Of a stretch of 64,000 bases of DNA, positions 23,854 to 58,329 are shown piece by piece. Under the pieces are notes generated by a model. It was given only the letters and a program-made list of their open reading frames with translations, was not told where the DNA came from and did not search any database. The stretch spans positions 35,448 through 99,447 of the forward strand of contig PJMG01000012.1 of assembly GCA_003173895.1 (NCBI GenBank), read 5' to 3'. Origin of the DNA: Candidatus Levyibacteriota bacterium (lineage in GTDB: Bacteria; Patescibacteriota; Microgenomatia; Levybacterales; UBA12049). Numbering within the stretch: the first letter of the stretch is position 1; each line of letters starts with the position of its first letter. A program made the translations under genes and the position numbers.

Positions 23854-23901
23854 AAAAACCCCCAACTAATACGACCAATTGGCGAATTAATTGGGGGTTT
23901 A
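23854..23901. terminator. Bidirectional intrinsic terminator hairpin between convergent mini-genes
   Basis: AAAACCCCCAA-(25 nt)-TTGGGGGTTT, flanked by an A-run on the left and a T-run on the right. Confidence 0.45.
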
Positions 23902-23907
23902 ATTTAA

Positions 23908-24045: not shown

Positions 24046-24077
24046 AACTTAAAATATAAAAAATGAGATTTAAATTA

Positions 24078-25787
24078 TTATTTTTTACCTTGATAGTGTT
24101 CTAATTTATAGATTTCTATAAAGCTAACATTCTTTTTATCTACTATTTCTGCTTGACCAAAACCTGCTATTTCAAAAAGTGGATTACCTAAAGGATAGCA
24201 TGGAATACTCTCACAAATGACTATTAATTGATTAGTAACTGAAGTTCTTTGAGGATCTAAATAGGGAGGTTGTATAGTTACCGGAGGATGTCCCCAAATA
24301 GTTAAGAAATAACGATAGGCAAAATCAGAATTTCCACCTGTAATTAGAGCTAAATTAAAGGGTTTATTATCTACTTCATTTAAAACTACTTTAGATATTA
24401 ATCTCGCTTGATTAACTTGTTCATTAGGAAGAATTCTTATAGGACTATAATAAATACTAGTAAATATTATCGCTCCTAAAATTAAAATTCCACCAATTTT
24501 ACTTGATATATTTATTACTTGATAGAGCTTGTTATTCTGAGCGTTAGCGAAGAATCTCGTCCTTTTCCAATTATTTTTCCATAAAAATCCTATAAAATTA
24601 CTAATTACTAAAATTACTACAGGATATAAAAATTCAAAATAATAATCATAAATATTTTTTTTATAAAATCCAAAAATTAAGAGTGGTGGAATTAACCAGG
24701 CAAAGATTAAAAAATATTTTAGAAACTTATTTTTATTTGTCATTCTGAGCGTTAGCGAAGAATCTCGTCCCTTTTGTTTTAATAAGCTAACAAATTCAAT
24801 TAAAAAGTAGATTAAACTTCCTAAGGACACGATGGAAATTAAAATAGCAAAAATATCTAGCTTACCAAATGTTGAAACTGCTGTATTGGAAGGTGGGTAA
24901 TAGAATAAAGTTTTCCCAAAAACAGTTATAAATACATCCCAAGTTTTCATCAGGATATTCCCACTTCCTCCTACGTCAGGAGAATGAAAAATAAAATTAA
25001 TAATATTTAATGTGTTTACGAATTTATGTCTTACTTCAAATGCTAAATAAGGAGAAAACCCTATTAAAAATCCTAAAATGAAAAAGAAAAAAATCTTAAT
25101 GTCATCCTGAACTTGTTTCAGGATTTTCTTCATCATCCTAGCTGGTCCAGAATTAATGCTAAAAATAAACTCTGCTCCAATAACATATAAAATTATCGAC
25201 ACTCCTAAAAATGTTTCTATGTAGTGAAGTTGAAGTAAAATTCCATAGCAGATACCGGATAAAATAACCCATTTATTTTTCCCCTCAAACAAACTTCTAT
25301 ATAAAAACCATAAACATAATATGGTAAAAAATGGCATAGGATTTGGATTCCATGAAGATTTAGAATAAATTACTACGAGTGGTGAAATAGCATAAATAAA
25401 TGCTGCTATAAATCCTGTAGTTTTATTAAAAATATTTTTACCAAGATAATAAACTAGATAAACAGTTATTATTCCAAGTAATGCAATCATTACAGCTGGC
25501 CCCACAGGATTATAATTAAATAACCATAAAAATGGTGCCATGAAGTAGTAATAAATAGGACCTAAGAAAAAACCGCCAACAGAACTGGTTGGTCCCAGTA
25601 AAGTTAGATGTCCATGTAAAATATTATAAACAGTTAAGACATCTCTTCCTTCATCTCCTAAAAAAGTCATGTAATCACCAATCCTATAAAATCTTAGGAA
25701 TGCAGCTAACAGTAAAATTAAAAATAAAAGAAAATTTGTTTTAGTAAGATATTTTTTTAAAGCACTTATCATAATATCTAATGCCAT
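24078..25787 (-). CDS. GT-C fold glycosyltransferase, PMT_2 / ArnT-like (GT39/GT83 family)
   Basis: About 12 TM helices. DE motif in first extracytoplasmic loop (TFLGDEGRD). 569 aa. Contains three in-frame copies of dispersed-repeat fragments (24531-24568, 24739-24781, 25101-25124). Confidence 0.75.
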   Translation of the reverse strand: MALDIMISALKKYLTKTNFLLFLILLLAAFLRFYRIGDYMTFLGDEGRDVLTVYNILHGHLTLLGPTSSVGGFFLGPIYYYFMAPFLWLFNYNPVGPAVMIALLGIITVYLVYYLGKNIFNKTTGFIAAFIYAISPLVVIYSKSSWNPNPMPFFTILCLWFLYRSLFEGKNKWVILSGICYGILLQLHYIETFLGVSIILYVIGAEFIFSINSGPARMMKKILKQVQDDIKIFFFFILGFLIGFSPYLAFEVRHKFVNTLNIINFIFHSPDVGGSGNILMKTWDVFITVFGKTLFYYPPSNTAVSTFGKLDIFAILISIVSLGSLIYFLIEFVSLLKQKGRDSSLTLRMTNKNKFLKYFLIFAWLIPPLLIFGFYKKNIYDYYFEFLYPVVILVISNFIGFLWKNNWKRTRFFANAQNNKLYQVINISSKIGGILILGAIIFTSIYYSPIRILPNEQVNQARLISKVVLNEVDNKPFNLALITGGNSDFAYRYFLTIWGHPPVTIQPPYLDPQRTSVTNQLIVICESIPCYPLGNPLFEIAGFGQAEIVDKKNVSFIEIYKLEHYQGKK

Positions 25788-25849
25788 CCTGAACTTATTT
25801 CAGGATCTTCTTAATTCAGAGAGGATGCTGAAATAAATTCAGCATGACA
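25784..25849. repeat. Palindromic dispersed repeat (TGTCAT...ATGACA family)
   Basis: CATCCTGAAC-ttatt-TCAGGATC ... GGATGCTGAA-ataaa-TTCAGCATGACA. Near-identical architecture to 4024-4091. Confidence 0.6.
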
Positions 25850-25853
25850 AGAG

Positions 25854-27005
25854 TTATTTTTTCTTCCAAATAAATTTAGAATAAATAAAGAAGTTCCAGA
25901 TTAAAAGTAGTGCCGTTCCAATTACAAAATAAAGATAATAATATTTAATATTAATTAAAAAATGGAAATTGCCATTATTACTTATAAAAGTATCACCTAA
26001 AAATATAGTTCCTGTTTGAATAAAAATAACTCCGAAAATCGATGTAACATAAAATTGCAGCATTTTCCAGAAGTAGATTCCTATTCCTGTTATTTTTTGA
26101 TGACTAAAAGTCCAGATATTATTTAAATTATAGTTAGAGAAAATGGCTACAGCTGCGCCGACTAGATTAGCTAATGAATGATCCCAGTGAAAAGAATCTG
26201 ATAAAACTTTTAGAATTATAAAATTAATTACGAAACCTGTTCCTCCAACTACTAAAAATTTAAAGAAACTGGATAATTCTATTAACCTCTGAGTAATGAC
26301 AAATTTTAAAGTATTTACAATGGTAGAACCTGATGGAATTTTAGATTCACCCGCTACTCTTTCACCAAAAGCAAATGGTACTTCCGCTACTTTAAATCCA
26401 TCTTCTACAGATTTTAGTAAAAATCCTACCTGAAAATAATAACCAGTTAATTTTTTAATTCTTTCTTTTTCTTTTATAAATACTTCTTTTTTAATAGCTC
26501 TATAGCCGCCTGTCCAATCATGAATATAAAAACGCCCCAAAACAAATCTTATAAATTGATTTCCTACTACGGATAAAAATTTACGATCTATACCCCAATT
26601 TTGAGGAATTGATCCACCATCACTATATCTGGTACCAATTACGAAATCATATCCGGCGTCAATTTTTTTAAGAAATTGAGGAATTTTATCAGGATCATGT
26701 TGGAAATCCGCATCCATTTCAAAAACCACATCTACTTTTAATGCATCAATCGAAAAACTCATAGCTCTTATATATGCTGCACCTAAACCTTTTTTTGGTC
26801 CACTATCTACTCTAATATTTTTATATTTTTTATTTAAACTTTCTGCTATTTTAGCTGTACCATCAGGTGAATTATCATCAGCTACTACAATTAACATTTC
26901 ATAGTCTTTAATACGTGGAAAAACTTTTTCTTCGAGGTAGGTAATAATTTTTTCTATATTTTCTTTTTCGTTATATGTAGGAAGAATAATAGCTGCTTTT
27001 TTCAT
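25854..27005 (-). CDS. GT2 glycosyltransferase fused to GtrA-like membrane domain (polyprenyl-phosphate sugar synthase, DPM1/ArnC-like)
   Basis: N-terminal GT-A domain (ILPTYNE ... VVADDNSPDGT ... EMDADFQHDP = DxD). C-terminal 4-TM GtrA-like domain. Confidence 0.8.
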   Translation of the reverse strand: MKKAAIILPTYNEKENIEKIITYLEEKVFPRIKDYEMLIVVADDNSPDGTAKIAESLNKKYKNIRVDSGPKKGLGAAYIRAMSFSIDALKVDVVFEMDADFQHDPDKIPQFLKKIDAGYDFVIGTRYSDGGSIPQNWGIDRKFLSVVGNQFIRFVLGRFYIHDWTGGYRAIKKEVFIKEKERIKKLTGYYFQVGFLLKSVEDGFKVAEVPFAFGERVAGESKIPSGSTIVNTLKFVITQRLIELSSFFKFLVVGGTGFVINFIILKVLSDSFHWDHSLANLVGAAVAIFSNYNLNNIWTFSHQKITGIGIYFWKMLQFYVTSIFGVIFIQTGTIFLGDTFISNNGNFHFLINIKYYYLYFVIGTALLLIWNFFIYSKFIWKKK

Positions 27006-40680: not shown

Positions 40681-41585
40681 GGCGTTATACTACCTGCTGT
40701 TAAAAATATTATAAATACTAAAATACCAGCAAAAAATAAAATGTGATCTAAATTGTGTCCAGATAATCTATAAATTTTTTTTCGCTGGACTATAAATAGA
40801 TCTAGTGAAAAAACTATAATAAATAGAATTATAAGAATTTGTGCTAAATTTTTAGCGAAATTAAATCTATTAATAAGTGATGCTTCACTTACCATTTCAT
40901 TTACAGGATTATTACTAGCATAAGCATTATTAATCAAATTTTTAGAATTATTATTATTGGACAATGGTGCATTTCCTTTACCCCCAAACATTTCGACTAT
41001 TAAAACAGTGTTTTTTTCACCTGTTAAAGTTCCTTCTTTAACGGAAAATCCTATATCTTGATAGTCAGGAGATAAAATATTTTCTCTATGAGATGGGCTA
41101 TTCATCCAAGCATCCATCACATCACCAGGTGTAGTAAATCCGCGAGCTAAATTTTCACCAGCATATGTATAGTTATAATTTTCTTTTTGTATAAAATACC
41201 ATGGAGTTTTACCACTGGGAGATATATGTGCCCAATAATTTTCTGCGAACATATTATCTGCTTTTAAATCAGCAGCTTGAGCTAATTCAGCATTATAATT
41301 TAGAGGTTTTAATCCATTTTCTTCTCTCTGCTGATTAGTTAAAACTAAAAGTTGTTGGGTAGAAATATTTACAGACAAACCTAAAACTTTAGGATAATTA
41401 TTTTTAACATAGGATAATGAAATAGAAGCAATTAAAAATATTCCAGCAATTAAAAGTAAAATATCGTTGTGGAGAATTTTAGGTTTATGATTATTACTTT
41501 TATGAGGAATAAAAAAGTGTCTAAAAATATTACGATAACTTCTATTCATAGAAACAGTATAACGTTTATGAATAAATGGGTGCAA
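40677..41585 (-). CDS. Membrane-anchored CAP/SCP/PR-1 domain protein
   Basis: TM anchor then CAP motifs (HISPSGKTPWYF ... GENLARGF ... VMDAWMNSPSHRENIL). C-terminal TM. The real start is probably the internal Met (MNRSYR) near 41549. Confidence 0.65.
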   Translation of the reverse strand: MHPFIHKRYTVSMNRSYRNIFRHFFIPHKSNNHKPKILHNDILLLIAGIFLIASISLSYVKNNYPKVLGLSVNISTQQLLVLTNQQREENGLKPLNYNAELAQAADLKADNMFAENYWAHISPSGKTPWYFIQKENYNYTYAGENLARGFTTPGDVMDAWMNSPSHRENILSPDYQDIGFSVKEGTLTGEKNTVLIVEMFGGKGNAPLSNNNNSKNLINNAYASNNPVNEMVSEASLINRFNFAKNLAQILIILFIIVFSLDLFIVQRKKIYRLSGHNLDHILFFAGILVFIIFLTAGSITP

Positions 41586-41889
41586 TAGATTTTTTTATAT
41601 TAAACTTTTTACTATTTAATTTAATCCCTAATGCATAAGAAATGGCCTGAGCGACAGAAATCCCTACTCTAAGTCCAGTAAAAGATCCAGGTCCTGTAAA
41701 AACCTCTATATCATCTAAATCTTTAAATTTTAATTTATTTTCTTTTAAGATTTCAACAATTAGTGGTAATAAAGTCTGACTTTTACGATTAGCAACTTTA
41801 GTTTTTTTTATTTTTTTAATACCAATACTTAATTTTACTTTAGCCAAATCCTTATCAGATGTGTCAATGAATAATTTTATATTTTTCAT
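41566..41889 (-). CDS. tsaB: TsaB (YeaZ) N-terminal fragment, 107 aa; possibly truncated
   Basis: LFIDTSDKDLAKVKL ... LPLIVEILKE ... DIEVFTGPGSFTGLRVGISVAQAISYALGI matches the TsaB N-terminal half. Full-length TsaB is ~220 aa. The ORF ends inside the CAP-domain gene. Confidence 0.55.
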   Translation of the reverse strand: MKNIKLFIDTSDKDLAKVKLSIGIKKIKKTKVANRKSQTLLPLIVEILKENKLKFKDLDDIEVFTGPGSFTGLRVGISVAQAISYALGIKLNSKKFNIKKSIAPIYS

Positions 41890-41930
41890 ATTTATTAATC
41901 AAATCCTATAGATATTTATCTTTTTAATAA

Positions 41931-42095
41931 AAAGTGAGCAAATATATATTTTAAAATGCATTGAAAGTTTGCTCTATGATAATTTTTAAATTTAATTTAA
42001 GTTTGGTAGCAAACTTTCACGAGCAAGAATGATATTTAATATTAATTTACAAAGCAATGTTTTCGAGCGTCTTTTAAAATATATTTTGCGAACTC
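41931..42095. repeat. Long (~165 bp) imperfect-palindrome dispersed repeat, copy 1 (upstream of tsaB)
   Basis: agtgagcaaatatatattttaaaatGCATTGAAAGTTTGCTctatgataattt...aagtttggtAGCAAACTTTCacgagcaagaatgatatt...gcgtcttttaaaatatattttgcgaactc. Internal GAAAGTTTGCT/AGCAAACTTTC and terminal tatattttaaaa/ttttaaaatata inverted segments. Confidence 0.6.
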
Positions 42096-42131
42096 AAAAC
42101 AAAATCAATCTTATTACAAACCTCTGCTAAC

Positions 42132-42713
42132 TTATAAATTAATTTTAATTACTCCTTCTCTTATAATTTTCCACTCTTTCCTTGTCACGTCAATTATAGT
42201 CGAAGACAACGAACCTTTACAAACTCCAGGTAATACAAAATCCACTTTCTCTAAAAGTTTTTGATCTAAATCTTCCAATTTAGAACTGGAAGGTTTACCA
42301 TGAAAATTAGCAGAAGTACCTATAATAGGAACACTGATTTTTTCAATTATCTCAAGCAGATTTTTATCATCAGGCATGCGAACTGCTACAGTATCTTTAT
42401 TAGAACGAACAATTTCCAGAACTTTATCTTTCTTAACTTTAGTTACAATTGTTAATCCTCCTGGCCAATATTTATTAATTAATTCTTCAATAACATTTTT
42501 ATTAAATGGCTCTACATACTTTTGAGCCATTTCTACTGAAGAAATTAAAATCGGTAAAGGTACCTTTTCCTTTCTTTTTTTAATTTCAAAAATTCTTTTT
42601 ATAGCTTTTTTATTATCAATCCTACACCCAATTCCAAAAACAGTATCTGTAGGAAAAATCACTACTCCACCATTTTTAAAAACCTCGATGGCTTTTTCTA
42701 AACTAGGATTCAT
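42132..42713 (-). CDS. tsaC: L-threonylcarbamoyladenylate synthase TsaC/YrdC
   Basis: YrdC fold signature (GGVVIFPTDTVFGIGC ... PLPILI ... VAVRMP ... GTSANFHGKP). Confidence 0.8.
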   Translation of the reverse strand: MNPSLEKAIEVFKNGGVVIFPTDTVFGIGCRIDNKKAIKRIFEIKKRKEKVPLPILISSVEMAQKYVEPFNKNVIEELINKYWPGGLTIVTKVKKDKVLEIVRSNKDTVAVRMPDDKNLLEIIEKISVPIIGTSANFHGKPSSSKLEDLDQKLLEKVDFVLPGVCKGSLSSTIIDVTRKEWKIIREGVIKINL

Positions 42714-42740
42714 AATTCAAACTATATTATAGTATAAAAA

Positions 42741-42800
42741 GTTTAATCAAAAGCGAGCAGAAGTATATTTTAAAACGCATTGAAAGTTTGCTCTATGATA
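42741..42800. repeat. Partial copy (left half) of the ~165 bp repeat, upstream of tsaC / overlapping tsaE 3' end
   Basis: aaagcgagcagaagtatattttaaaacGCATTGAAAGTTTGCTctatgataatttc, near-identical to the left arm of the copies at 41931 and 50763. Confidence 0.45.
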
Positions 42801-43300
42801 ATTTCTCTTTTATTCTCATCTAAAATCTCAAATTTTATTTCCCATCTTTTCTCAGGTAAAAATTTACCTAACTTTTCCGGCCATTCAATGGCTACAATAT
42901 TATTCTTTTCTTTTAAAATATCTAATAATCCTGTAGATTCTAAATCATTTTCATTTTCTAAACGATATAAATCCGCATGATAAAAATTACTAAATTCTTC
43001 AATCTTAACCTTATTTACATTTTTCACTTTTAACTTTTCACTTTTAACTTTATAGCTTCTTACTATTATAAATGTTGGGGAGATAATTCTGTGCTTTATA
43101 CCTAAACCTTTAGCTAACCCTTTAACAAATTGCGTTTTACCTGCTCCTAAATTACCATATAAACAAATGACATCTCCTATTTCTAATTTTTTTGCAAAGT
43201 CAAATCCTAACTTCTCAGTTTCTTCACTACTATTAGTTACCAAAATTTTTTTAAATTTATTTTCCCTTTTTTCCATAACTGAAATCCTAATATACCACAT
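42770..43300 (-). CDS. tsaE: tRNA t6A biosynthesis ATPase TsaE
   Basis: Walker A GNLGAGKTQFVKG; SPTFIIV; YHADLYRL motif. Contains a K/V-rich ~20-aa insertion encoded by a 14-nt tandem duplication. The annotated start overlaps the upstream gene by 64 nt; the true start may be a downstream non-ATG codon. Confidence 0.7.
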   Translation of the reverse strand: MWYIRISVMEKRENKFKKILVTNSSEETEKLGFDFAKKLEIGDVICLYGNLGAGKTQFVKGLAKGLGIKHRIISPTFIIVRSYKVKSEKLKVKNVNKVKIEEFSNFYHADLYRLENENDLESTGLLDILKEKNNIVAIEWPEKLGKFLPEKRWEIKFEILDENKREIIIEQTFNAF

Positions 43301-44118
43301 GATAATAGCAAAATAAAAACTCCAATAAAAATATAGATCACATTTGCGCTATTATTCACATTCTTAGTACTGTTTTTATTAGTTTTTTTAACACTTGTAC
43401 CTAGTACTTCACCTTTCCATAAATTATTATCAATGGTCACTGAAGGAGAATCTGTAGCTGTAGAGGACTTTGTAGCAGCCGTATTCGGTTTTAAATCAAC
43501 TTTCGTAGGATTTCTAGTCGGAATTTTCGTCGCTGTAGGAATAGGAGTATTGGTAGGAGACTTAGAAGTAGGCAAAGGCGTAGGCGTATTCGTAGGGTTT
43601 GGTGTTGGTGTGGGAGTATCAGTCGGGGTAGGCGTAGGAGGAACTGTAATATTTACAGTCACAATATTAGACCAAGTAGCAGTACTTCCCGTTTCAGTAT
43701 AACGCCCAATTTTCAGGTCGTAAGATCCACTTCCTGTTGTAAAGTTTGGATCGTCAGAGTCTATTCTTCCTTGAATATCACCATTCCAAACTCCATTATT
43801 ATCAGTAGTAATACTTAAAAAACTGGAATAATTTATAGGAGGTGGTGTCCCGTTATACCAACCAGTACCATTATAAGTGGATCCAAAATAATTAGAAGTT
43901 CCAGTTGGGGCTAAAGCCAGACGTAAACGATAGATCGCATTTTTAGAAAGTCCACTCATAGTAGCAGTTACATTAAAAGAAGTATCCAGAGTTAGAGTAT
44001 CCGTTGGGTAAGAAATAATAGTTGGTGCGGAAGCAAGAATTTTATTGGGGAAAAATAGAAAGATTAAAAGTAAAAAAAGAATTTCAAAAAATTTTCCAAG
44101 CTTCAGGGCAGCTCTCAT
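43237..44118 (-). CDS. Secreted/membrane-anchored protein with Pro/Thr-rich linker
   Basis: Signal peptide, beta-rich N-domain, (PTxT)n linker PTPTPTDTPTPTPNPTNTPTPLPT, C-terminal TM + basic tail. Confidence 0.5.
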   Translation of the reverse strand: MRAALKLGKFFEILFLLLIFLFFPNKILASAPTIISYPTDTLTLDTSFNVTATMSGLSKNAIYRLRLALAPTGTSNYFGSTYNGTGWYNGTPPPINYSSFLSITTDNNGVWNGDIQGRIDSDDPNFTTGSGSYDLKIGRYTETGSTATWSNIVTVNITVPPTPTPTDTPTPTPNPTNTPTPLPTSKSPTNTPIPTATKIPTRNPTKVDLKPNTAATKSSTATDSPSVTIDNNLWKGEVLGTSVKKTNKNSTKNVNNSANVIYIFIGVFILLLSCGILGFQLWKKGKINLKKFW

Positions 44119-44156
44119 AAATTAATTATGTTTCAATTTTTATATATTTGCAAATT

Positions 44157-45365
44157 TTATAATATTTGCACTCGATCTACTTCTACGATAGGCTCTGTGG
44201 GATATGTACCTCTGAAAGAAATATCATGTCCATTTGGAGTAAAAGGATCATTCATTTGATAGTTACCATTAGATCCACTTATTAAAACTACGAAATGATC
44301 TGCTATTGGTCCACCATCATAACTAATACCTACGATTACTGGATCACCACCTGATAAAACACTATCTATAGAAGCATTAGCTCGTTGAGCACTTACGCCC
44401 CCTGCAGAAATGGTAAATAAAAGATAAGCTGTAGAAGAGAAAAAGTTTGAGGAGTTAGAATTTATATCCAAAGGTGTAACTTTATGTCCATAATGGGTTA
44501 TTACCATAGCCATACTAGTCATCAAGCACCCATAACTAGCTATAGACGAATCTGTTCCATTAATTCCTATACCTCCCCACTGTGAATCTCTTTGATTATA
44601 ATAACAGCCCCACCCATCACAAACTGTTTGATTAGACAGAAGACTAGCTCCTCCCTGAGCAGCTACGAAATTTCCAAAACCAGCCAATTGTGCTTTAGCT
44701 TGGTTCAGTAAATGTTGATAATTTTCTTCACTATTTTGAGTTTCTGTAAGTAAAGTCTGTTTTTGAGTTTTTTGTGTATTTAATTGATCAGTATATTGTT
44801 GAAGCTGAGCTTGTAAAGATACCACTTGCTGTTTTTTAGTTTCTAGAATTTGTTTTTGGTTAGTGTAATCATCTTTAGCCTGCACTGTAGCGAATGCTAC
44901 TTGTCTATCATTAGCTTCTACTATTTGTAAATAATTCTCGCGATTCACAAAATCGCTTATATTATTAGATGCTAAAATAGATTGAATAGGCGGTTGTGTA
45001 CCTACTTCATAACTTTTTCTAATTCTATTATAGAAAATCTTACTTAAAGTCTGAAAAGCATTATTCAAACTTCCTATTTTTTGAGTTGTACTATCTATAT
45101 CTTCTTCAAGAGAAATAATTTGTGCTTGAGTCGCATCTATTCTAGCTTGGGTTAATTCAATTTGCCCATTCATTACGGCTATTTGATTAGAAAGTGTATT
45201 AGCTTGCCCTTTCAAATCCGTAAGTTTACTTTGGAGAGAATTTATAAGATTTTGACAGTCAGCTTGAGAAGAACACGAAACATCGTCAGCTAAAGTTTTA
45301 TTGGCTGATAAATTAAATACGATAAATAAAGCTAAAACAATGGTAAAAATCTTCAGAAATTTCAT
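44157..45365 (-). CDS. Secreted coiled-coil protein with C-terminal papain-like (peptidase C39_2/CHAP-like) domain; PcsB/EnvC-like FtsEX partner candidate
   Basis: Signal peptide and ~230-aa coiled-coil rich in Q/L heptads. C-terminal domain has a Cys motif (SYGCLMTSMAMVITHYG) and His motif (ADHFVVLISG). Located directly downstream of ftsE-ftsX. Confidence 0.55.
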   Translation of the reverse strand: MKFLKIFTIVLALFIVFNLSANKTLADDVSCSSQADCQNLINSLQSKLTDLKGQANTLSNQIAVMNGQIELTQARIDATQAQIISLEEDIDSTTQKIGSLNNAFQTLSKIFYNRIRKSYEVGTQPPIQSILASNNISDFVNRENYLQIVEANDRQVAFATVQAKDDYTNQKQILETKKQQVVSLQAQLQQYTDQLNTQKTQKQTLLTETQNSEENYQHLLNQAKAQLAGFGNFVAAQGGASLLSNQTVCDGWGCYYNQRDSQWGGIGINGTDSSIASYGCLMTSMAMVITHYGHKVTPLDINSNSSNFFSSTAYLLFTISAGGVSAQRANASIDSVLSGGDPVIVGISYDGGPIADHFVVLISGSNGNYQMNDPFTPNGHDISFRGTYPTEPIVEVDRVQIL

Positions 45366-45383
45366 ACTTCTAAATTTTTAACT

Positions 45384-45451
45384 TGTCATCCTGAGCAACG
45401 CGAAGGATCTCATTCTATAGATAGAGATTCTTCACTTCGTTCAGAATGACA
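45384..45451. repeat. Palindromic dispersed repeat (TGTCATCCTGAGC...GTTCAGAATGACA)
   Basis: 68-bp element with perfect 13-bp terminal inverted repeats and central cgaaggatctcattctatagatagagattcttcac palindrome. Inverted-orientation twin at 51312-51379. Confidence 0.6.
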
Positions 45452-45479
45452 AATGAGTTTTAACGAAGCAAATTTAAAT

Positions 45480-46349
45480 TTATTTTAAATATCTATAAAC
45501 CGCAATCAAGCTAGAATAAAGACCTAGTAGTACTGCTAAGATAATTTCAAAACCTAAAAGAGCCAGTAAAAAGTAAGGATTTGCAGGAAGCACTGGAATA
45601 CCTTTTAGAAATGACATTAAATAGGGAGTAGCATATAAAAGAGTACCTGTAGTAATCACCCAACCTAAAACTGCTCCTACTAAAGCATAAAAAATTCCTT
45701 CATACACAAAAGGCCAAGCTATGTATAAATTAGTCGCGCCAATTAAACGCATTATTTCTATATCTTCTCTTTTTTGTGAAACTTTAATGCCAATTATGGT
45801 AGCCATTATAAAAAGTGAAACTAGGATTAATGTACCTATTAGCACTAATCCTATTTTTCGAACGGCACCAGTCCAAGAAACTAAAGTAGAAACTATATCT
45901 TGTTGATAAACTACTTGATCTACGATAGTAGAACTTTTTACTTGCGAGGCCAGGCTAGCTAAATCATCTATATTATTAGCGGAAATTTCTAAAGACGCGG
46001 GAAGTATATCTGCTGTTACTAGTTGCAATAACAAGGGATCATTTTTATTTTGTGCTTTATATAATTGTAATGCTTGTTCTTTAGAAACAAATTTTAAACT
46101 GGAAACTTTACCAGTAGCTTTAAGTTGATTTTCTAAAGTAGTTATTTGAGCTGGAGTAGCTGCATCTTGGAAAAATGCAGTGACTTGAGGTTTGGATTCA
46201 AAATAATTAATTACTATTTGTGATCCAACAGTTATAAAACCAAATGCTGAAATTACCATAAAAGTAAGAAGCATTATAAAAATAGCAGCTAGTGCCTGAT
46301 ATGGCGAACGTCTGATATGATGATATGCTGTTTTTATATGTTTTTTCAT
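45480..46349 (-). CDS. ftsX: Cell division permease FtsX
   Basis: N-terminal TM, periplasmic domain, C-terminal 3-TM FtsX-like bundle. 2-nt gap to ftsE. Confidence 0.8.
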   Translation of the reverse strand: MKKHIKTAYHHIRRSPYQALAAIFIMLLTFMVISAFGFITVGSQIVINYFESKPQVTAFFQDAATPAQITTLENQLKATGKVSSLKFVSKEQALQLYKAQNKNDPLLLQLVTADILPASLEISANNIDDLASLASQVKSSTIVDQVVYQQDIVSTLVSWTGAVRKIGLVLIGTLILVSLFIMATIIGIKVSQKREDIEIMRLIGATNLYIAWPFVYEGIFYALVGAVLGWVITTGTLLYATPYLMSFLKGIPVLPANPYFLLALLGFEIILAVLLGLYSSLIAVYRYLK

Positions 46350-46351
46350 AT

Positions 46352-47365
46352 CTATTTTTTAAACTTAAATCTCTCAGCTAATTTTCCACCAAAAAGTCCT
46401 TTTTTAATCTGAGGTTTTTCTTCATCTATTCTATCTTTTTCAATTGTTTCGTCCTCTAAATTTTTTTCTTTTTTATGATCTTCTTTATGTTTGGATTTAT
46501 CTACTGGTATTTTTTCATCAACTTTTTCATGTTCTACTCTATCTTCAACTTCTTCTTTTTTATCTTTATTTTTTTCATCCAAAGGATGATCAGCCTTTGG
46601 ATGAATTTTCTCATGTTTATCTTTTACTTTTTCTTTAGCTTCTTTTACATTTTCCATTTTCTCTTCATCCAATTTTTCCTTCTCATTCTTACCATTTTTC
46701 TTAGAATCTGAGATCATTTTTCCACTATCTAATTTTATAACTCTATTTTTAGGATATTTTTTTAAAATTTCTAAATTATGTGTAGCCATAATTATTGTTG
46801 TGCCTGCTGCCTTATTAATAGTATCTAAAAGCTCTACTATTCCAAATGCTGTATCAGAATCTAAATTACCAGTTGGTTCATCAGCTAAGATCATCAAAGG
46901 ATCTAAAGTTAAAGCACGAGCTATAGCTGCTCTCTGAAGTTCTCCTCCTGAAAGTTGAATAGGAAATTTATCTTTATGTTCCATAATCCCTACTTTTTCT
47001 AGAAGTTCTAAGGCTTTATTCAAAGCCTCTTTTGGATGAGATCCTCTGATCTCAAAAGGTAGTAGAACATTTTCTAGAATGGTCTTATCATTTAAAAGTT
47101 TTAAATCTTGGAAAACCACTCCGATTTTAGACCTTAAAGCAGGAATTTTATTTTTAGGGAGTTTAGAAATATCTACTTCTTCTATAGTTATAACTCCGCT
47201 ACTAGGAAGATATTCGCGAATTAAAAGTCTAAGAAGTGTAGTTTTACCCGAACCAGTGTGTCCTACGAGAAAAACAAATTCCCCTTTATCTATTTCTAGA
47301 TTTAGAGTATCTAGTCCAATAGTACCTGTGGAAAAAGTCTTTGAAACATCAGTTAAAACAATCAT
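46352..47365 (-). CDS. ftsE: Cell division ATP-binding protein FtsE with ~120-aa K/E/D-rich C-terminal tail
   Basis: Walker A GHTGSGKTT, signature LSGGELQR, Walker B ILADEPTGNLD, H-loop ATHN. Residues ~215-337 are a low-complexity charged extension (KEKVKDKHEKIHPKADHPLDEKNKDKKEE...). Confidence 0.85.
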   Translation of the reverse strand: MIVLTDVSKTFSTGTIGLDTLNLEIDKGEFVFLVGHTGSGKTTLLRLLIREYLPSSGVITIEEVDISKLPKNKIPALRSKIGVVFQDLKLLNDKTILENVLLPFEIRGSHPKEALNKALELLEKVGIMEHKDKFPIQLSGGELQRAAIARALTLDPLMILADEPTGNLDSDTAFGIVELLDTINKAAGTTIIMATHNLEILKKYPKNRVIKLDSGKMISDSKKNGKNEKEKLDEEKMENVKEAKEKVKDKHEKIHPKADHPLDEKNKDKKEEVEDRVEHEKVDEKIPVDKSKHKEDHKKEKNLEDETIEKDRIDEEKPQIKKGLFGGKLAERFKFKK

Positions 47366-47833
47366 CTAGTTTTCCACCTCCACACGTCCTACATCCATGA
47401 GCCAACCTGCTGTTTGAGCTTTTTGTGTGGCTCCATTGACTTTAACTTTATGATTTATAAACATAGATAAATCAACTGAAGATGAGGTTAAATAAACATA
47501 TTGAGATGGGCCTCCACTCCGGACTAAATGATATTGTCCTTCGTTATTAATGCCTCCTTTTTGTAATACACCTTCAGCACTATCAGGGAAGGAAGATAAG
47601 TTACTAGCTCCAAAAACCATTCCTTTTGAGACAGCTGTTTTACTACCTGTAGTCGATGACATTACCTGACTCGCTGAACCAGTAGTCATTTTAAATACCA
47701 AATAACCCACAGAAGCTCCAACTACTATAGTAAATATTAAAAATAAAATGGCGCCCATTGGAGGATTTTTCTTATTTTTCTCCTCAAATTTATGAAACGC
47801 CTGATTATTACTTTGTGCACTTTGTTCTTCCAT
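47366..47833 (-). CDS. Membrane-anchored hypothetical protein upstream of ftsE
   Basis: Single N-terminal TM (AILFLIFTIVVGASVGYLVF), ~100-aa extracytoplasmic domain; stop abuts the ftsE start. Confidence 0.4.
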   Translation of the reverse strand: MEEQSAQSNNQAFHKFEEKNKKNPPMGAILFLIFTIVVGASVGYLVFKMTTGSASQVMSSTTGSKTAVSKGMVFGASNLSSFPDSAEGVLQKGGINNEGQYHLVRSGGPSQYVYLTSSSVDLSMFINHKVKVNGATQKAQTAGWLMDVGRVEVEN

Positions 47834-47929
47834 AATTCACCTACCTTTAAATTCTCTACTGGGATATATATTTAGTAAAACATATTTACTGTTCTTTCGC
47901 AACAGATTAGTAGATATTTTTGATATAAT

Positions 47930-48238
47930 ATGTTTGTGATAAAAGATGTTTTAATCACTTTGATCTCTGTATTAGGTGGTTATAAATTTAGCGACTATAT
48001 TATCGGTAAAAAAGCTAAAAAATTACATTTTTTGGGTTATAAGATTTCTAAAAAACATCATGTTCATCACAGTATGTATGGATTAGTTCCCTTCTTTATC
48101 GCTCCTTTTACTCTGGCTAATATTACACTCACTATTACTATAGTAGGATTTGGTATAGGAATTATAATAGAACACACAGTACATGAAGGATTTGTTTTTA
48201 TAAATAAAGTAGAAAAGGAATTAAGTAATATTGATTAA
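47930..48238 (+). CDS. Small membrane protein (102 aa)
   Basis: Three hydrophobic segments; no motif. Confidence 0.3.
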   Translation: MFVIKDVLITLISVLGGYKFSDYIIGKKAKKLHFLGYKISKKHHVHHSMYGLVPFFIAPFTLANITLTITIVGFGIGIIIEHTVHEGFVFINKVEKELSNID

Positions 48239-48924
48239 TTTAGTATTTCAATAATCTCAGGATCCCATGTAAGTGAAGCATTAGTTAGTTGATCACATTC
48301 AATATCATATTCTCCGTGTCTATTCTCAATATTAGTTGGAAATGGATCTAAAACATGAAACATATTATCTTTGTATCCTGTTACTAAAACAAAGTGTCCT
48401 TCAAGTCCTCCTTTAATATCATCTACTATTCTTTCTTTTCCTACCATTTTTAGTCTATGACCCCATGCCCAATCTTCATCAATGCAAAGAATTACTAAAG
48501 ATTTTTTATCTAACATGTCTTTAATAGTTTGGGATGAATATGATTTCTGTTCTAGATCTCCACCGTCTTCAAGATAATCTAAAATATATGTAACTTCCTT
48601 ACGCCAGAGATTCTTTGGATGAAAATTAAGCCATTCCTTAATATTTTCAATTAATTTATCTTTTGGTAAATCTCGCCAAGCGTAGGATAATACCTTGCTA
48701 GTTGAAGTAACTAGTTTTGTTTTTATTCCGTTCTTATGTACATGTGAAACAAGTTGAGCTGCATAGGTTGGTTTACCTCTTTTAGGATGCCCAAAGTCTT
48801 TTAGAACATCTCCTAACTTTATATCTTTACCTTTCATGGAATATACCATAGCTACACAACATGGGCCACACGTATATGAGTTTGATGCTTGAAATATATG
48901 AATATTTTTATATTTACTATCCAT
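48235..48924 (-). CDS. Cytoplasmic papain-like cysteine peptidase, C39-like (peptidase_C39_2-type)
   Basis: Q-x9-C nucleophile context (IFQASNSYTCGPCCVAMV), His motif (EGHFVLVTGY), downstream Asp (VLDPF). No signal peptide. Confidence 0.5.
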   Translation of the reverse strand: MDSKYKNIHIFQASNSYTCGPCCVAMVYSMKGKDIKLGDVLKDFGHPKRGKPTYAAQLVSHVHKNGIKTKLVTSTSKVLSYAWRDLPKDKLIENIKEWLNFHPKNLWRKEVTYILDYLEDGGDLEQKSYSSQTIKDMLDKKSLVILCIDEDWAWGHRLKMVGKERIVDDIKGGLEGHFVLVTGYKDNMFHVLDPFPTNIENRHGEYDIECDQLTNASLTWDPEIIEILN

Positions 48925-48928
48925 AAAC

Positions 48929-49687
48929 TTATTTTAACATTTTCCTTATTTCTTTTAAATTATTTTCAAGTATTTTAAATTTTTCATTTTTATCAATAGT
49001 TTCAAACTTGAAAATTTCAAATGCTATTGTTCCATTCCAATTTAACTTTTTAATTAGTTTCAATAATTTTTTGATTGGTAAATTCCCTGTAAATAAAGGT
49101 AGATGTTGATTTCCATTTTTATAGTCACTTAAGTGAATTAATTTTATTCTCTTATGATACTGATTAAAAAAATCAATAATATTTATATCAAACGTTCCTA
49201 AATGTGATGTATCCATGGTCATATTTAAATCATTCTTAATACAAAAATTAGCAAAGGCTTCAGGATTAGTCCCTTCTTTATTTACTAAAGAGGCCATGTT
49301 AGTAGTTCCACTTTCAAATGAAATAATTACATTATTTTTTTCACCCCATTTATTAATTTTTTCAATCAAATTTAATCCATTTAAAAATATAGGTTTTCTA
49401 AAATTAAATAAATGAAAATTTAGGACTGGATTTTTAGTATTTGTTAGCTCTAATGCTTTTTTAAGAGTTTTTCTGAGAAAAAAATCACTTTCAAAAAAAA
49501 ACATTAAACGGGGTTCATGTAAACAAACTACAAATTTTTTTTGTTCTTCGGTTAATTTAGTATTTTTATAAAAATCTGAAAGACCCATGTCATAGTCTAA
49601 TCCATCAAAACTAGCTTTTTTCGCGAAATTATAAATTTCATTAAACGAAGAATCTTTAAGAGTGGTAGATAGAGTAATTTTTAGCAT
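48929..49687 (-). CDS. Xylose isomerase-like TIM-barrel (sugar phosphate isomerase/epimerase) family protein
   Basis: Weak: IKLIHLSDYKNGNQHLPLFTGNLP ... GTIAFEIF resembles the H-L-x-D ... E metal-site segments of AP endonuclease 2/xylose isomerase-like folds. Confidence 0.4.
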   Translation of the reverse strand: MLKITLSTTLKDSSFNEIYNFAKKASFDGLDYDMGLSDFYKNTKLTEEQKKFVVCLHEPRLMFFFESDFFLRKTLKKALELTNTKNPVLNFHLFNFRKPIFLNGLNLIEKINKWGEKNNVIISFESGTTNMASLVNKEGTNPEAFANFCIKNDLNMTMDTSHLGTFDINIIDFFNQYHKRIKLIHLSDYKNGNQHLPLFTGNLPIKKLLKLIKKLNWNGTIAFEIFKFETIDKNEKFKILENNLKEIRKMLK

Positions 49688-49688
49688 C

Positions 49689-50696
49689 TTAAGTCAATAA
49701 GCGTAGTTCTTCTTCTATAAATTTATCCAAATTTCCATTTAAAACACCTGCAGTATCAGAAGTTTCATACTGCGTCCTTAAATCTTTAACCATGTGATAT
49801 GGGTGTAAAACATACGAGCGAATTTGATTTCCCCATCCAGGCGTTTTATATCCACCTTTTAGTGCTGCTTCAGCTTTTTTACGTTCTTCTTCCTGAATTA
49901 ACCAAAGTTTAGCTTTAAGCATACGTAGAGCATATTCACGATTCTGAAGCTGAGATCTTTCTGTTTGGCAAGTTATGACAATTCCTGTAGGTTTATGTTT
50001 TAAACGAACTGCAGAAGAAACTTTATTTACATTTTGTCCTCCGTGTCCACCTGCTCTAAAAAATTCCCATTCTAAATCTTCATCTTTTACTTCTACATCA
50101 CTATCATTTTCTATTTCTGGAAGGACTTCTACTAAAGCAAATGAAGTCTGACGTAAATTATCCGCGTTAAACGGAGATTGGCGAACCAGTCTATGAGTTC
50201 CTGCTTCAAACTTTAAAAATCCATAAGCATAAGATCCTGTTATTTCTATAGTTATACTTTTAAATCCTGCTTCATCACCTGGTGTTTGATCTATAATTTC
50301 ATATTTCCAACCTTTTTTTTCTATAAATCTGGTATACATACGAAATAAAATTTCACACCAATCCATAGCTTCAGTTCCACCCTGGCCCGAATGAATAGAT
50401 AAAATAGCATTACTCTGATCATGAGCTCCAGAGAAATACAAAAACATTTCCAGTTTTTCTACTATTTTTTCAGCTTCTTCTAAATTATTTTCTTCAAGAT
50501 ACAGCTGAAGCATTTCTATTTCCTCTACTTCTTTTTGCAAATCAGAAAGTTGCTTCATCTTTTCAGATGCGCTTTTATGATCTTGCCAGAAAACAGGATT
50601 TTCACTCTCTTTTTGAAGAGATGTAATTTTTTCTTTTTTAGAATTTATATCCAGTTTTTCTATTATTTTTTCAGCTCGGGCTTTTAATTCATCCAT
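49689..50696 (-). CDS. prfB: Peptide chain release factor 2
   Basis: GGQ motif ([17 protein letters not shown]) and SPF tripeptide (RQSPFNADN), which is RF2-specific. ORF is continuous with no programmed +1 frameshift site. Confidence 0.85.
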
Positions 50697-50762
50697 GTAC
50701 CTATTTTCTCACAGAAAAACTTAAATTCCAAATTCTACAGAATAAATTGATTATTAATTACT

Positions 50763-50928
50763 AAAAGAGAGCAGATGTGTATTTTAAACAGCATTGAAAG
50801 TTTGCTTTATAATAATTTGAAATCTAATTTAACTTTGGTAGCGAACTTTCAAGAGCGAGAATGATATTGAATATTAATTCACAAAGCAATGTTTTCTAGC
50901 GTCTTTTAAAATATACTCTGCGAGCTAT
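50763..50928. repeat. Long imperfect-palindrome dispersed repeat, copy 3 (upstream of prfB)
   Basis: aaagagagcagatgtgtattttaaacaGCATTGAAAGTTTGCTttataataattt...AGCGAACTTTCaagagcgagaatgatatt...gcgtcttttaaaatatactctgcgagctat; ~90% identical to copy 1. Confidence 0.6.
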
Positions 50929-50965
50929 AGTAAAAGAGGTTATAAAAGTCCATTTGTTTCAAAAT

Positions 50966-51310
50966 TTATAATTTATCGCAGATTTGAAGGCAGGCGTTTT
51001 TAGCATTATTTAAAGGTGTTTGCGGTAACTGTTGAAGCTCCTGAATAATCTGTCTTACTTGAGGTGAACTGCTAGCTAATTGATTTAAATTAATATTTTT
51101 TGCCTGATCTTGAATAGAGTTAATAGTTCCAGCTACCGCAGAATTTGTAGATGAATTATTAGTAGAAATTTCTATTCCCTTTACCTCTTTTTGTAAAACT
51201 AATGGAACAACAGTCTGCTTTTTATTAAAATAACCATTTTTGTATAAATAAAATCCTCCAACTCCTATTCCAATTAAAAATAAAAAAAGAAAAAATTTCA
51301 TATTATCCAT
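50966..51310 (-). CDS. Small secreted/membrane-anchored protein (114 aa)
   Basis: N-terminal hydrophobic segment; Q/N/S-rich; no motif. Confidence 0.3.
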   Translation of the reverse strand: MDNMKFFLFLFLIGIGVGGFYLYKNGYFNKKQTVVPLVLQKEVKGIEISTNNSSTNSAVAGTINSIQDQAKNINLNQLASSSPQVRQIIQELQQLPQTPLNNAKNACLQICDKL

Positions 51311-51311
51311 C

Positions 51312-51379
51312 TGTCATTCTGAACATAGTGAAGAATCTCTATCTATAGAATTAGATCCTTCACGTTGCTCAGTATGACA
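51312..51379. repeat. Palindromic dispersed repeat (inverse-orientation twin of 45384-45451)
   Basis: TGTCATTCTGAACatagtgaagaatctctatctatagaattagatccttcacGTTGCTCAGTATGACA is approximately the reverse complement of the 45384 copy. Confidence 0.6.
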
Positions 51380-51382
51380 ACT

Positions 51383-52243
51383 TTATCTTAGAAGAAATAT
51401 TACCAAACTTATCCCTCCTGCGATAATACAATAAATTCCAAAGGGAGTAAGTTTATTGGTCTTAAAATATTTCACTAAAAATTTATTTGATAGATATGCA
51501 AATATTCCGGCCATCGCTGCACCAATTAAAATCTGATGCAAATTCCCTCTTTCTGCCTTTCCTAAAATGTGAGGTAATTTTAAAAGTGCTGCGCCACCTA
51601 TGATCGGAGTTGCAAGTAAAAATGAGAATTTAACAGCATCCTCGTGGGATAAACCTGATAATAATCCACCCGATAGTGTCGCTCCAGTTCTAGAAAATCC
51701 CGGTAGAAGAGCTAATAGCTGAGATAATCCTACTTTAAATGATTGCATAAATGAAATTTTAGAAATTCTGGAATCACTTTTAACTAAACTCTCCTCTATC
51801 ATTTTTTTCTTTCTAAGTCCTTCAGCAAAAAGTAGCATAATTCCATTTAGAATTAAAAATATCGCCGCCTCAGATGAAGATGCAAATAATCCCTGAATTT
51901 TTTTTTCAAATATTACTCCAACTAATCCTGCAGGAACTGTGGCAATAATTAAAAGCCACCCTAGTTTTTCATTAATATCATTTTCATTTATTTTTCTATT
52001 TTTAATAGTACGAATAATTCCACTAATTATCGCCATCCAATCTTTTCGATAAATCATAAATAGAACTAAAGCAGTAGCAAAATGTGTAGCGACTAAAAAA
52101 TCTAAAAATGATGAGGAATTCTGGTTAATATGCCAATTAAGCAAGCTAGGTAAAATTACACTGTGGCCCAGACTGGATATAGGAAAAAGTTCTGTAATTC
52201 CTTGAAAAATTCCTAGAATGATTGCTTGAGTAACTGTTAGCAT
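51383..52243 (-). CDS. uppP: Undecaprenyl-diphosphatase
   Basis: GFSRSGATLSGGLL-type motif (GFSRTGATLSGGLLSGLSHEDA) and N-terminal TELFPISSLGH; 8 TM. Confidence 0.85.
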   Translation of the reverse strand: MLTVTQAIILGIFQGITELFPISSLGHSVILPSLLNWHINQNSSSFLDFLVATHFATALVLFMIYRKDWMAIISGIIRTIKNRKINENDINEKLGWLLIIATVPAGLVGVIFEKKIQGLFASSSEAAIFLILNGIMLLFAEGLRKKKMIEESLVKSDSRISKISFMQSFKVGLSQLLALLPGFSRTGATLSGGLLSGLSHEDAVKFSFLLATPIIGGAALLKLPHILGKAERGNLHQILIGAAMAGIFAYLSNKFLVKYFKTNKLTPFGIYCIIAGGISLVIFLLR

Positions 52244-52275
52244 GTATTAATATTAACTATTTATATAAAACAAAA

Positions 52276-52423
52276 CAAGATTTAATTGAAAATTTGCTGT
52301 TTAGTAATTTCGTAATTTAATTAAAGTTTGGTATCAAACTTTCAAGAGCGAGAATGATATTCTATATTAATTTATAAAACAATTTTTACGAACGTCTTTT
52401 AAAATATACTCTGCGAGCTATAG
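52276..52423. repeat. Long imperfect-palindrome dispersed repeat, copy 4 (upstream of uppP, left terminus shortened)
   Basis: attgaaaatttgctgtttagtaattt...aagtttggtATCAAACTTTCaagagcgagaatgatatt...gaacgtcttttaaaatatactctgcgagctatag. Confidence 0.55.
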
Positions 52424-52455
52424 ACAAGCCATAAAAACATACTTATACTAAGTTT

Positions 52456-52788
52456 ATGAATTTAAAAGATTTACAAAAAAGATTAGATACTACACTTTCA
52501 CAAATTAAACCAAAATATAAATTATATACTCCCATGGAAAAAGAATTATTGACACAAACTGTAAAGTTAAACGAAGAAGTAGGAGAATTATGTAATGATA
52601 TTTTATCTGTTTTAAAACTTCAGAGAAAATCAAAATTGGAAAAATTTGAAAAGAAAAATTTTTATGAAGAATTCGCTGATGTAATAATTTCTACTATACA
52701 ACTCGCAAATACTGCACATGTAGATATTCAAAGAGCAGTAAATGATAAAGTTAAAAAAATTGAAAAAAGATATATAAAAGACCACTAA
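52456..52788 (+). CDS. MazG-like nucleotide pyrophosphohydrolase domain protein (small, 110 aa)
   Basis: All-alpha. E-E-x-x-E-x(n)-E-x-x-D pattern (LNEEVGELCNDI ... EEFADVIIS) typical of MazG/HisE-like NTP pyrophosphatases. Confidence 0.45.
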   Translation: MNLKDLQKRLDTTLSQIKPKYKLYTPMEKELLTQTVKLNEEVGELCNDILSVLKLQRKSKLEKFEKKNFYEEFADVIISTIQLANTAHVDIQRAVNDKVKKIEKRYIKDH

Positions 52789-57418: not shown

Positions 57419-58329
57419 ATATGAATCTTTCTAAAGCTCAAAATAACTCTATGCGAAAAATTCTTCAAATTTTTGAGCCAATACTTAATAGAATTATTGA
57501 TTCTAAACTTTCTCCCAATGAAATTTCACTTTTAGGACTTAATAAATCAATTCATGGTTTAAATAAAATTTTTAATTCTAAAAATATATCGGTTAAATTT
57601 TATGGTTTTTATTTATTCTCTTTTGGTGAATTCCTAGATCTCTTAGATGGCATCCGCGCCCGATCTCAGGGTAAAGCAAGAAGCGTAAAGGGTAAAGAAA
57701 AAACACATCAAAAACTTTACATTTCACCCTTAACTCTTAACACTTTAAACGGTCAGCTTCTCGATGGTTTCTGTGACCGTGTTAAAGAATTTTATTATTT
57801 TTATAAAAAAACAAATTTTAATAAGCAATTTGGAATTTCTTGTATTTTACCTAGCATTGCCCGTGCTGCTAATGAACTTTTAAATCAAACAGTTTCTGAA
57901 AAAGATGAAAAAGGTGGAAGTATGTTAGATAGAACCAGATTAATTTTTATTTCATTATTTTTTTACATTTTAGGTTTTACCAAAAAATCTCTACAAATAG
58001 ATCAAATAATTTATGAAAGAAATTTAGCCACTTTTAGTAATAGAATTAATAAAATAAATTTTGAAAAATTAGAAAAATATCCACCAGCTGGCGGAGAAAA
58101 GGATTTAAATGAATTTCAAAAAAAAGCACTAATTCGTTTGAAATTTTATTTAAAACTATATAAAGAAGAACAGTTAGTTTGTCATTCTGAACAAGGCGAA
58201 GAATTTCAATTTATAAAAAAATTAGATCAATTAAAAATTTTAAAATCCGTAAATTTAAAAAATGAAGAAAAATTATTTAGCTTATTTAATAATTTTTTTC
58301 CGATAAATAAATGCTATCATTCCCAATGA
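57403..58329 (+). CDS. K/N-rich hypothetical protein (308 aa) with CDP-alcohol phosphatidyltransferase-like D-G-x2-A-R ... G-x3-D-x3-D segment
   Basis: DLLDGIRARSQG ... GQLLDGFCD fits the D-G-x2-A-R-x(n)-G-x3-D-x3-D motif order, but with a 29-aa rather than 8-aa spacer and weak TM content. Contains an in-frame repeat fragment at 58181-58207. Confidence 0.3.
   Translation: MIKYAHMNLSKAQNNSMRKILQIFEPILNRIIDSKLSPNEISLLGLNKSIHGLNKIFNSKNISVKFYGFYLFSFGEFLDLLDGIRARSQGKARSVKGKEKTHQKLYISPLTLNTLNGQLLDGFCDRVKEFYYFYKKTNFNKQFGISCILPSIARAANELLNQTVSEKDEKGGSMLDRTRLIFISLFFYILGFTKKSLQIDQIIYERNLATFSNRINKINFEKLEKYPPAGGEKDLNEFQKKALIRLKFYLKLYKEEQLVCHSEQGEEFQFIKKLDQLKILKSVNLKNEEKLFSLFNNFFPINKCYHSQ

Follow-up and report, generated by a model that had tools for sequence, protein, structure and literature searches.

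The 64,000-nt window studied here (positions 35,448 to 99,447 of contig PJMG01000012.1, from a genome of the Levybacteria, Microgenomates, Candidate Phyla Radiation (CPR)) carries, among housekeeping genes, several copies of an AT-rich inverted repeat, each lying a short distance upstream of the start of tsaB, tsaC, prfB or uppP. The question raised by this locus is whether the repeat is a device which places unrelated essential genes under common control, or a mobile element that became lodged between them. An initial annotation had offered both answers, a promoter-carrying MITE (a miniature transposable element with inverted repeats) or a conserved structured 5' leader (regulatory RNA). The evidence collected below leads us to think it probable that the repeat represents a lineage-specific family of MITE-like, non-autonomous insertion elements. 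As judged by sequence comparison, its copies entered gene junctions that in relatives are overlapping or only a few nt wide, and they now decay independently.

Repeat finding, MAFFT alignment and profile search agreed in defining a four-member repeat family in the window, with three full-length copies (A, C and D) and a half copy (B) (Table 1). An nhmmer scan of the window with a profile built from copies A, C and D found no fifth copy. The four positions given in the initial annotation were correct within a few bases, copy B was indeed the left half only, and the four copies were, as described there, in the same orientation, all on the + strand. The pairwise identity of 80-88% (A-C 85%, A-D 80%, C-D 82%, A-B 88%) was somewhat lower than the 85-90% claimed. 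The four copies span 10.5 kb out of the 64 kb and have a GC content of 22-27%. Copies C and D share an exact match of 30 nt (50901-50930 and 52394-52423, respectively). In the independent Logan short-read assembly of run SRR490139, from the source sample, a 1.5-kb contig (L007) matched window positions 50901-52422 at 100% identity, and both ends of this contig fell inside the 30 nt common to C and D. The identity with the window sequence shows that the inner junctions are not an assembly artefact, and the way the contig stops on both sides in the repeat identifies the element as a cause of short-read contig breaks for this organism.

The element consists of a core of 151-152 bp bounded by inverted arms, within a conserved sequence of about 175-187 bp. 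The arms, 18-19 nt long, have the sequence GCAGAnGTATATTTTAAAA and its complement, they enclose the core and are complementary at 18 of 19 positions in copy A and at 16 of 18 in copy C, with one indel each. Inside the core there is a 13-bp inner palindrome (ATTGAAAGTTTGCT / AGCAAACTTTCA), whose centre is offset from the centre of the outer arms, leaving about 46 nt beside the right arm without a pairing partner. On the minus strand of copy A the second inner arm can pair locally instead (AAGTTTG-CTAC-CAAACTT). This architecture, short outer arms around an off-centre inner palindrome, differs from the single palindrome of ~165 bp, capable of forming a hairpin of ~80 bp, that had been described initially, and the extended -10-like sequence TTTTAAAATATACT noted at that time turned out to be the AT-rich inverted arm, which is present at both ends. 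The sole pattern in the immediate flanks of the arms that was consistent across copies was GA, found on both sides wherever an arm is present. Two copies are damaged: D has no left arm, and B has nothing beyond the first inner arm, that is, its distal two-thirds are gone. Compared with dinucleotide shuffles, copies A and C folded better (z -2.1 to -4.3, the best value being that of the + strand of copy C), while copy D, in which no arm pairing was seen, folded at the level of shuffles (z +0.9 / -0.5). In copy C the + strand was more stable than the - strand (-45 vs -31 kcal/mol). All copies have stops in all six frames and no open reading frame (ORF) is common to them, which rules out small-protein genes; the translated element, used as a protein query, had no match among 5.8 billion predicted proteins.

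Homologues of TsaC, UppP and RF2 assign the genome to the Levybacteria/Microgenomates group of the Patescibacteria. Evidence that the copies are insertions came from the comparison with relatives. The comparison set consisted of three contigs of the closest available relatives (L004, L005 and L006, with TsaC proteins 64-69% identical to that encoded in the window), and a further set comprised 80 loci around prfB from GTDB representative genomes, amounting to 1.3 Mb of syntenic DNA. The gene order of the three contigs is the same as in the window (ftsE-ftsX-...-tsaE-tsaC-tsaB-CAP), and synteny is widely kept across the 80 loci. In the three closest relatives the tsaE/tsaC overlap amounts to 8-11 nt, and 4-14 nt separate tsaC from tsaB. 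In the Levybacteria loci the median gap is -4 nt at both tsa junctions (n=50 and 48), whereas the corresponding gaps in the window are 56 nt (tsaE/tsaC) and 242 nt (tsaC/tsaB). Similarly, of 38 relatives in which the junction of the 114-aa gene and prfB was compared, 14 have a gap of -4 to 16 nt, as opposed to 269 nt in the window. These differences indicate that copies A and B, and probably also C, are insertions in this lineage. The profile found no copy of the element in the 1.3 Mb of syntenic loci of the 80 relatives. From copy to copy, the sequences that separate the conserved block from the adjacent genes show no significant similarity (shuffle p 0.09-0.83); such unrelated flanks speak for separate insertions and rule out segmental duplication. 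The MITE part of the initial interpretation is supported by the inverted ends, the absence of coding capacity, the independent decay of the copies, and the location of A and B at sites where the genes of relatives overlap or nearly abut.

Copy B shows that an insertion of this kind can alter a protein. Copy B contributes the final seven codons of tsaE together with its stop codon (42770-42806), the transition falling between REIII and EQTFNAF in the translation. The TsaE tail in the window ends with ..KREIIIEQTFNAF, in contrast to ..KREIKIKYE or ..REIIIKKYDG in relatives, where tsaC starts inside the end of tsaE. The break of copy B falls in an 11-nt stretch, AAATTATCATA, which occurs in the element as well as at the native end of tsaE, and this coincidence points to a microhomology deletion. 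The truncation of copy B would then have arisen by deletion between two occurrences of AAATTAT(C)ATA, one in the native tsaE 3' end and one in the element, and this deletion would have left element sequence encoding a new TsaE C-terminus and stop codon.

Some known types of repeats can be set aside by their organization. Integron attC sites or gene cassettes do not fit, because the copies are flanked by housekeeping genes whose synteny holds in all relatives. TIGR or CRISPR-like arrays are tandem, and the copies described here are dispersed. In the palindrome-associated elements of the IS200/IS605 type each end has its own hairpin, whereas here the two ends pair together.

An exapted MITE which now serves as a common promoter, or as a terminator-plus-promoter module, of tsaB, tsaC, prfB and uppP, as in the Correia model, is one alternative, and Correia elements are among the prokaryotic MITEs for which sigma-70-like promoters are on record (PMC10969869, PMC2649163). 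Relative to the genes the copies all point the same way, and a CTTTT run is conserved after the arm, on the sense strand, in all of them. Copy D takes up ~150-170 of the 212 nt of the uppP-mazG spacer, thus at least one promoter there must overlap or abut the element; a TAGACA-17-TATACT match straddles the right end of copy D, pointing at mazG. At copy B, TTGATT-18-TATAGT starts in the conserved tail of the element and ends 7 nt before the tsaC ATG. We nevertheless consider this explanation unlikely. Sigma-70-like sites were found at shuffle frequency (12 sites vs 10.8-10.9 expected), those near A, B and D occupy non-homologous positions, and no conserved site pointing at the downstream gene was detected at the element end among the copies. 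The sole site conserved in A, B and C (TTAAAA or TAAACA, 17-18 nt, TATGAT or TATAAT) faces into the element, antisense to the genes, and may be a chance occurrence in 75% A+T DNA. No canonical terminator or terminator-like site was found in the copies, and the tails preceding the ATGs (TAGGATTTGATT and the like), alike at first sight, were not significantly so in the shuffle test. A Fur-box-like stretch, AGAATGATATTTAATATT (13/19 by eye), was also dismissed, since such matches are expected in DNA of this composition. In relatives the tsaE-tsaC-tsaB genes overlap, are coupled and have no internal promoter, so that none is needed at copies A or B. The distances between element and ATG noted initially were confirmed (42, 28, 67 and 33 nt for A, B, C and D), but in a window whose intergenic gaps have a median of 15 nt any intergenic insertion among co-directional genes would lie upstream of a gene start; the upstream stop codon is equally near in the case of A and C (about 24-35 nt), and copy B overlaps the tsaE stop. 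On these grounds we do not support the claim of a common promoter.

A function at the RNA level, either in cis, as a leader or a processing signal within the operon mRNA, or in the form of independently transcribed small RNAs (possibly from the + strand and antisense to the 3' ends of the upstream genes), appears to us very unlikely. It could account for the better-than-random folding of copies A and C with the more stable + strand, for the motifs GAAAGTTTGCT, its complement and GAAAACATTGCT, which permit mutually exclusive pairings, and for the promoter-like + strand site conserved in three copies. However, the good folding of A and C is explained by the inverted arms alone, pairs in the inner stems of C and D are broken, the one-armed D folds like random sequence, and none of the relatives has the element at the orthologous junctions. 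The Rfam scan suggested in the initial annotation identified no family: in the whole window, at gathering score, nothing was found except one tRNA, and copy A gave, at E <= 10, only chance-level matches to eukaryotic miRNA and snoRNA families. No significant covariation was found either, although with three sequences such a test has almost no statistical power either way. RNAalifold found among A, C and D no compensatory pair and several broken pairs in the inner stem, and when the minimum-energy fold of copy A, in which 86% of cells pair, was taken as the structure, covariation was not above that of column shuffles (150/500 and 293/500). The inner-stem substitutions of C and D mostly break pairs or give wobbles. 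Double-sided changes were seen at two arm positions only, with A-U in copy A and G-C in copy C, thus pairing is kept; as the four substitutions are without exception GC-to-AT transitions and the genome is very rich in A+T, they are suggestive only. Least probable of all seems to us a non-mobile repeat that recombination or gene conversion has spread locally, or a group of clustered protein binding sites with the inner palindrome as operator. All copies lie within 10.5 kb in one orientation, no clean target duplication was seen, no transposase was found in the ORFs scanned, the 30 identical nt at one end of C and D suggest homogenisation, and a 13-bp palindrome at fixed spacing is the type of site a dimeric protein could bind. 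On the other hand, the unrelated flanks offer no homology to drive recombination into the sites, C and D carry mutations in the palindrome, the copies have no associated regulator gene, there is no functional link among the four sets of flanking genes, and inverted arms together with an insertion footprint are a signature of transposition.

If, as we favour, the repeat is a MITE-like element, it would have spread by means of a transposase supplied in trans and encoded elsewhere, probably through short-range hopping, which we propose because all four copies are found within 10.5 kb. Only the intergenic insertions would have survived, as about 90% of the genome is coding and nearly all DNA outside the junctions belongs to essential genes. 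Copies A, B and C lie inside a co-directional string of genes, and are therefore presumably transcribed within a polycistronic mRNA, in which the paired arms would form a double-stranded stem of ~20 bp. By analogy with Correia and ERIC elements this duplex could be a target of RNase III or RNase E. The arms of Correia elements (CREE/NEMIS) are RNase III substrates and their ends can carry promoters (PMC2649163, PMC10969869); ERIC sequences are transcribed with the flanking genes and have, via RNase E, orientation-dependent effects on mRNA stability (PMC10969869). Any effects on expression, such as translational uncoupling, processing by RNase III or RNase E, or fortuitous promoters at copy D, would be side-effects of insertion and not the raison d'etre of the element.

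A number of observations do not sit well with this interpretation. There is no clear target-site duplication: an 8-bp direct repeat (TAAAAGAG) was seen at copy C only, with nothing comparable at A, and even its left copy falls in sequence conserved between the copies. The conserved sequence extends 6-14 nt outside each arm, thus the inverted repeats may be subterminal, and about 60 nt of the 242-nt tsaC-tsaB spacer are not covered by the conserved element. The empty sites belong to different species, which makes the comparison a between-species one. Four copies are known, all from the 64 kb window, in which the arm sequence does not recur and no longer element bounded by these arms was seen; a transposase domain was not detected in the 20 of about 65 window ORFs that were scanned against Pfam. 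The uniform orientation of the copies (1 in 8 by chance) and their clustering within 10.5 kb of 64 kb (roughly p 0.02, our own estimate under a uniform model) are not predicted by a purely neutral model, and the two arm changes with pairing kept hint at a constraint on arm complementarity. These features could be accommodated if the element had been domesticated as an 'operon splitter' between translationally coupled essential genes, its fixed orientation and its long double-stranded stem, possibly with a start site, serving message processing or re-initiation. We regard this version as quite improbable. If true, it would bring t6A synthesis (tsaE/C/B), RF2 and UppP under one shared transcriptional or post-transcriptional control in a genome with very few regulators, a rare case in which a mobile element has wired the regulation of a minimal genome, and the uniform orientation, the clustering and the two double-sided arm changes would reflect selection rather than chance.

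It is instructive to compare the element with the small repeats of other bacteria. Like the Correia elements of Neisseria, it is non-coding and of similar size (~100-155 bp in Correia) with inverted repeats (~20-26 bp in Correia) around a conserved core, it is intergenic, located near gene starts, presumably co-transcribed with its neighbours, and present or absent at orthologous sites. Unlike them, it was found in four copies (in the 64 kb window) rather than hundreds, it showed no evidence of a TA duplication, an outward promoter or an IHF site, and its host belongs to another phylum. The element is not known to be related in sequence to the Correia consensus. With ERIC/IRU of Enterobacteriaceae and Vibrionaceae it shares the character of an imperfect palindromic unit (~127 bp in ERIC) in operon spacers, and no transposase is known for either; it differs from ERIC in being longer and more AT-rich, in its off-centre inner palindrome, and in showing no sequence similarity by blastn against E. 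coli. Rickettsia palindromic elements (RPEs) and intragenic ERICs form in-frame fusions with host genes (PMC10969869). Copy B, encoding the last seven TsaE residues and the stop codon, resembles RPEs in this respect, although in this case a C-terminal tail was replaced after a deletion instead of an in-frame insertion inside the protein, and all copies but B are strictly intergenic. RUP, BOX and SPRITE of Streptococcus pneumoniae are, like our element, small, AT-rich, structured and intergenic repeats of a compact genome, and some of these families are mobilised in trans by an insertion sequence (IS) (PMC3049150, PMC2229807). For the element described here no cognate IS was found in the window ORFs scanned, it is not modular as BOX is, and it does not have the terminator-like stem and T run of SPRITE. 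The element is best regarded as a new family of a known kind, which resembles the Correia, ERIC and RUP-type MITEs in the way it works as well as in its build.

Searches beyond the locus did not reveal further members of the family. An exact-pattern scan of the GTDB representative genomes gave no match to the conserved core. The three matches to the core pattern in JGI metagenomes were all chance hits inside unrelated coding sequence, and ten matches to the inner-palindrome pattern in IMG/VR were all chance by nhmmer. Copy C had no blastn match in plasmid and phage collections, and no blastn match (word size 11, E <= 0.01) was obtained in 5,426 E. coli genomes (28 Gb). MITE-like repeats are routine in many bacteria, and the genomes of CPR/Patescibacteria are roughly 1 Mb with almost no intergenic space; our full-text literature searches yielded no description of MITE-like repeats in this group. 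Through the empty sites of relatives, the case described here shows that a MITE-like element can insert between overlapping, translationally coupled essential genes (tsaE/tsaC/tsaB), that it can be tolerated at such sites, and that it can rewrite the C-terminus of a protein. It is also a warning to annotators that such spacers should not be read as conserved leaders or promoters.

The gene names given initially (tsaB, tsaC, prfB and uppP) were confirmed by Pfam, which also identified TsaE (Table 1). Copy A is located between the stop of tsaC (42132) and the start of tsaB (41889), copy C between the stop of the 114-aa gene (50966) and the start of prfB (50696), and copy D in the divergent spacer between the starts of uppP (52243, -) and mazG (52456, +). 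The full-length copies lie in gaps of 242, 269 and 212 nt, all of which rank within the top nine by length of the 65 gaps in the window. The window has a GC content of 25-33% and a negative GC skew throughout.

Table 1. Coordinates of the repeat copies, their parts and the neighbouring genes (window positions unless another contig is named)
Feature	Position	Strand	Description
Copy A	41922-42108	+	nhmmer E 1e-51 at 41928-42106; alignments; full length; arm-bounded core 41938-42089 (152 bp)
Copy B	42742-42806	+	nhmmer E 1e-11 at 42746-42806; left arm 42747-42765 and first arm of inner palindrome
Copy C	50754-50940	+	nhmmer E 1e-55 at 50760-50939; full length; arm-bounded core 50771-50921
Copy D	52262-52433	+	nhmmer E 1e-45 at 52266-52431; alignments; left arm deleted or degenerate; right arm 52397-52414
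Copy A, left inverted arm	41938-41956	+	GCAAATATATATTTTAAAA; 18/19 complementary to 42072-42089, one indel
Copy A, right inverted arm	42072-42089	+	TTTTAAAATATATTTTGC
Copy C, arms	left 50771-50788, right 50904-50921	+	16/18 matches
Copy A, inner palindrome	41960-42021	+	ATTGAAAGTTTGCT at 41960-41973, complement at 42008-42021, ~34 nt between
Conserved promoter-like site	41951-41980, 42770-42799, 50785-50813	+	same element position in A, B and C
tsaB (short, 107 aa)	41566-41889	-	Pfam PF00814, E 2e-15; downstream of copy A; relatives' versions 98-105 aa
tsaC (Sua5/YrdC)	42132-42713	-	Pfam PF01300, E 1.5e-54; copy B on 5' side, copy A on 3' side
tsaE	42770-43300	-	Pfam PF02367, domain complete by residue 167/176; C-terminus from copy B
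prfB (RF2)	49689-50696	-	Pfam PCRF and RF-1 domains; downstream of copy C
uppP (BacA)	51383-52243	-	Pfam PF02673, E 4e-72; downstream of copy D
mazG	52456-52788	+	Pfam; diverges from uppP across copy D spacer
Second repeat family	45380-45455, 51308-51383, 4023-4107, 25781-25865, 24529-24597, 24737-24805, 58178-58218		
Hairpin-mosaic junctions in relatives	L013 19984-20086, 20666-20742; L050 16044-16164; L041 17437-17540; L048 11132-11220; L020 12643-12714; L030 12316-12422		

Some peculiarities of the neighbouring genes deserve mention. TsaB is only ~100 aa long in this clade, corresponding to the N-terminal part of PF00814, and in a number of relatives TsaB and TsaC are fused in a single protein of ~300 aa. 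The FtsE-like ABC ATPase (46352-47365, -) has a C-terminal extension of ~100 aa, a low-complexity sequence rich in Lys and Glu; relatives align to residues 1-236 only.

The window also contains a second, unrelated repeat family, consisting of near-perfect palindromes of 70-76 nt made up of hairpin modules (TGTCAT(C/T)CTGA(G/A)C...GAAG(G/A)ATCTC / ...TTCAGAATGACA). The members at 45380 and 51308 are 91% complementary to each other. Several members of this family fill junctions, for example that between uppP and the 114-aa gene, and the spacer 45366-45479. REP/BIME sequences are GC-rich hairpin units of 20-40 nt, often arranged in mosaics, and are associated with a RAYT transposase. The second family fits this type better than does the element, whose unit is longer than 150 bp and has 22-27% GC. 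Together, the two families explain the assembly break points of this organism. Several other Levybacteria have hairpin mosaics, GC-richer and strongly folding, that widen the tsaE/tsaC and tsaC/tsaB junctions, and some of these mosaics carry '...ATGACA' modules resembling the second family of the window. In Levybacteria, small palindromic repeats appear to have landed repeatedly at the tsaE/tsaC/tsaB junctions. The longest stretches of the window without an ORF of at least 110 aa are at 8014-8928 (915 nt) and 23325-24077 (753 nt). A pair of 44-nt repeats in the first of these (8112-8155 and 8497-8540), with a CTCCC..GGGAG hairpin followed by TTTTTT, resemble duplicated terminators.

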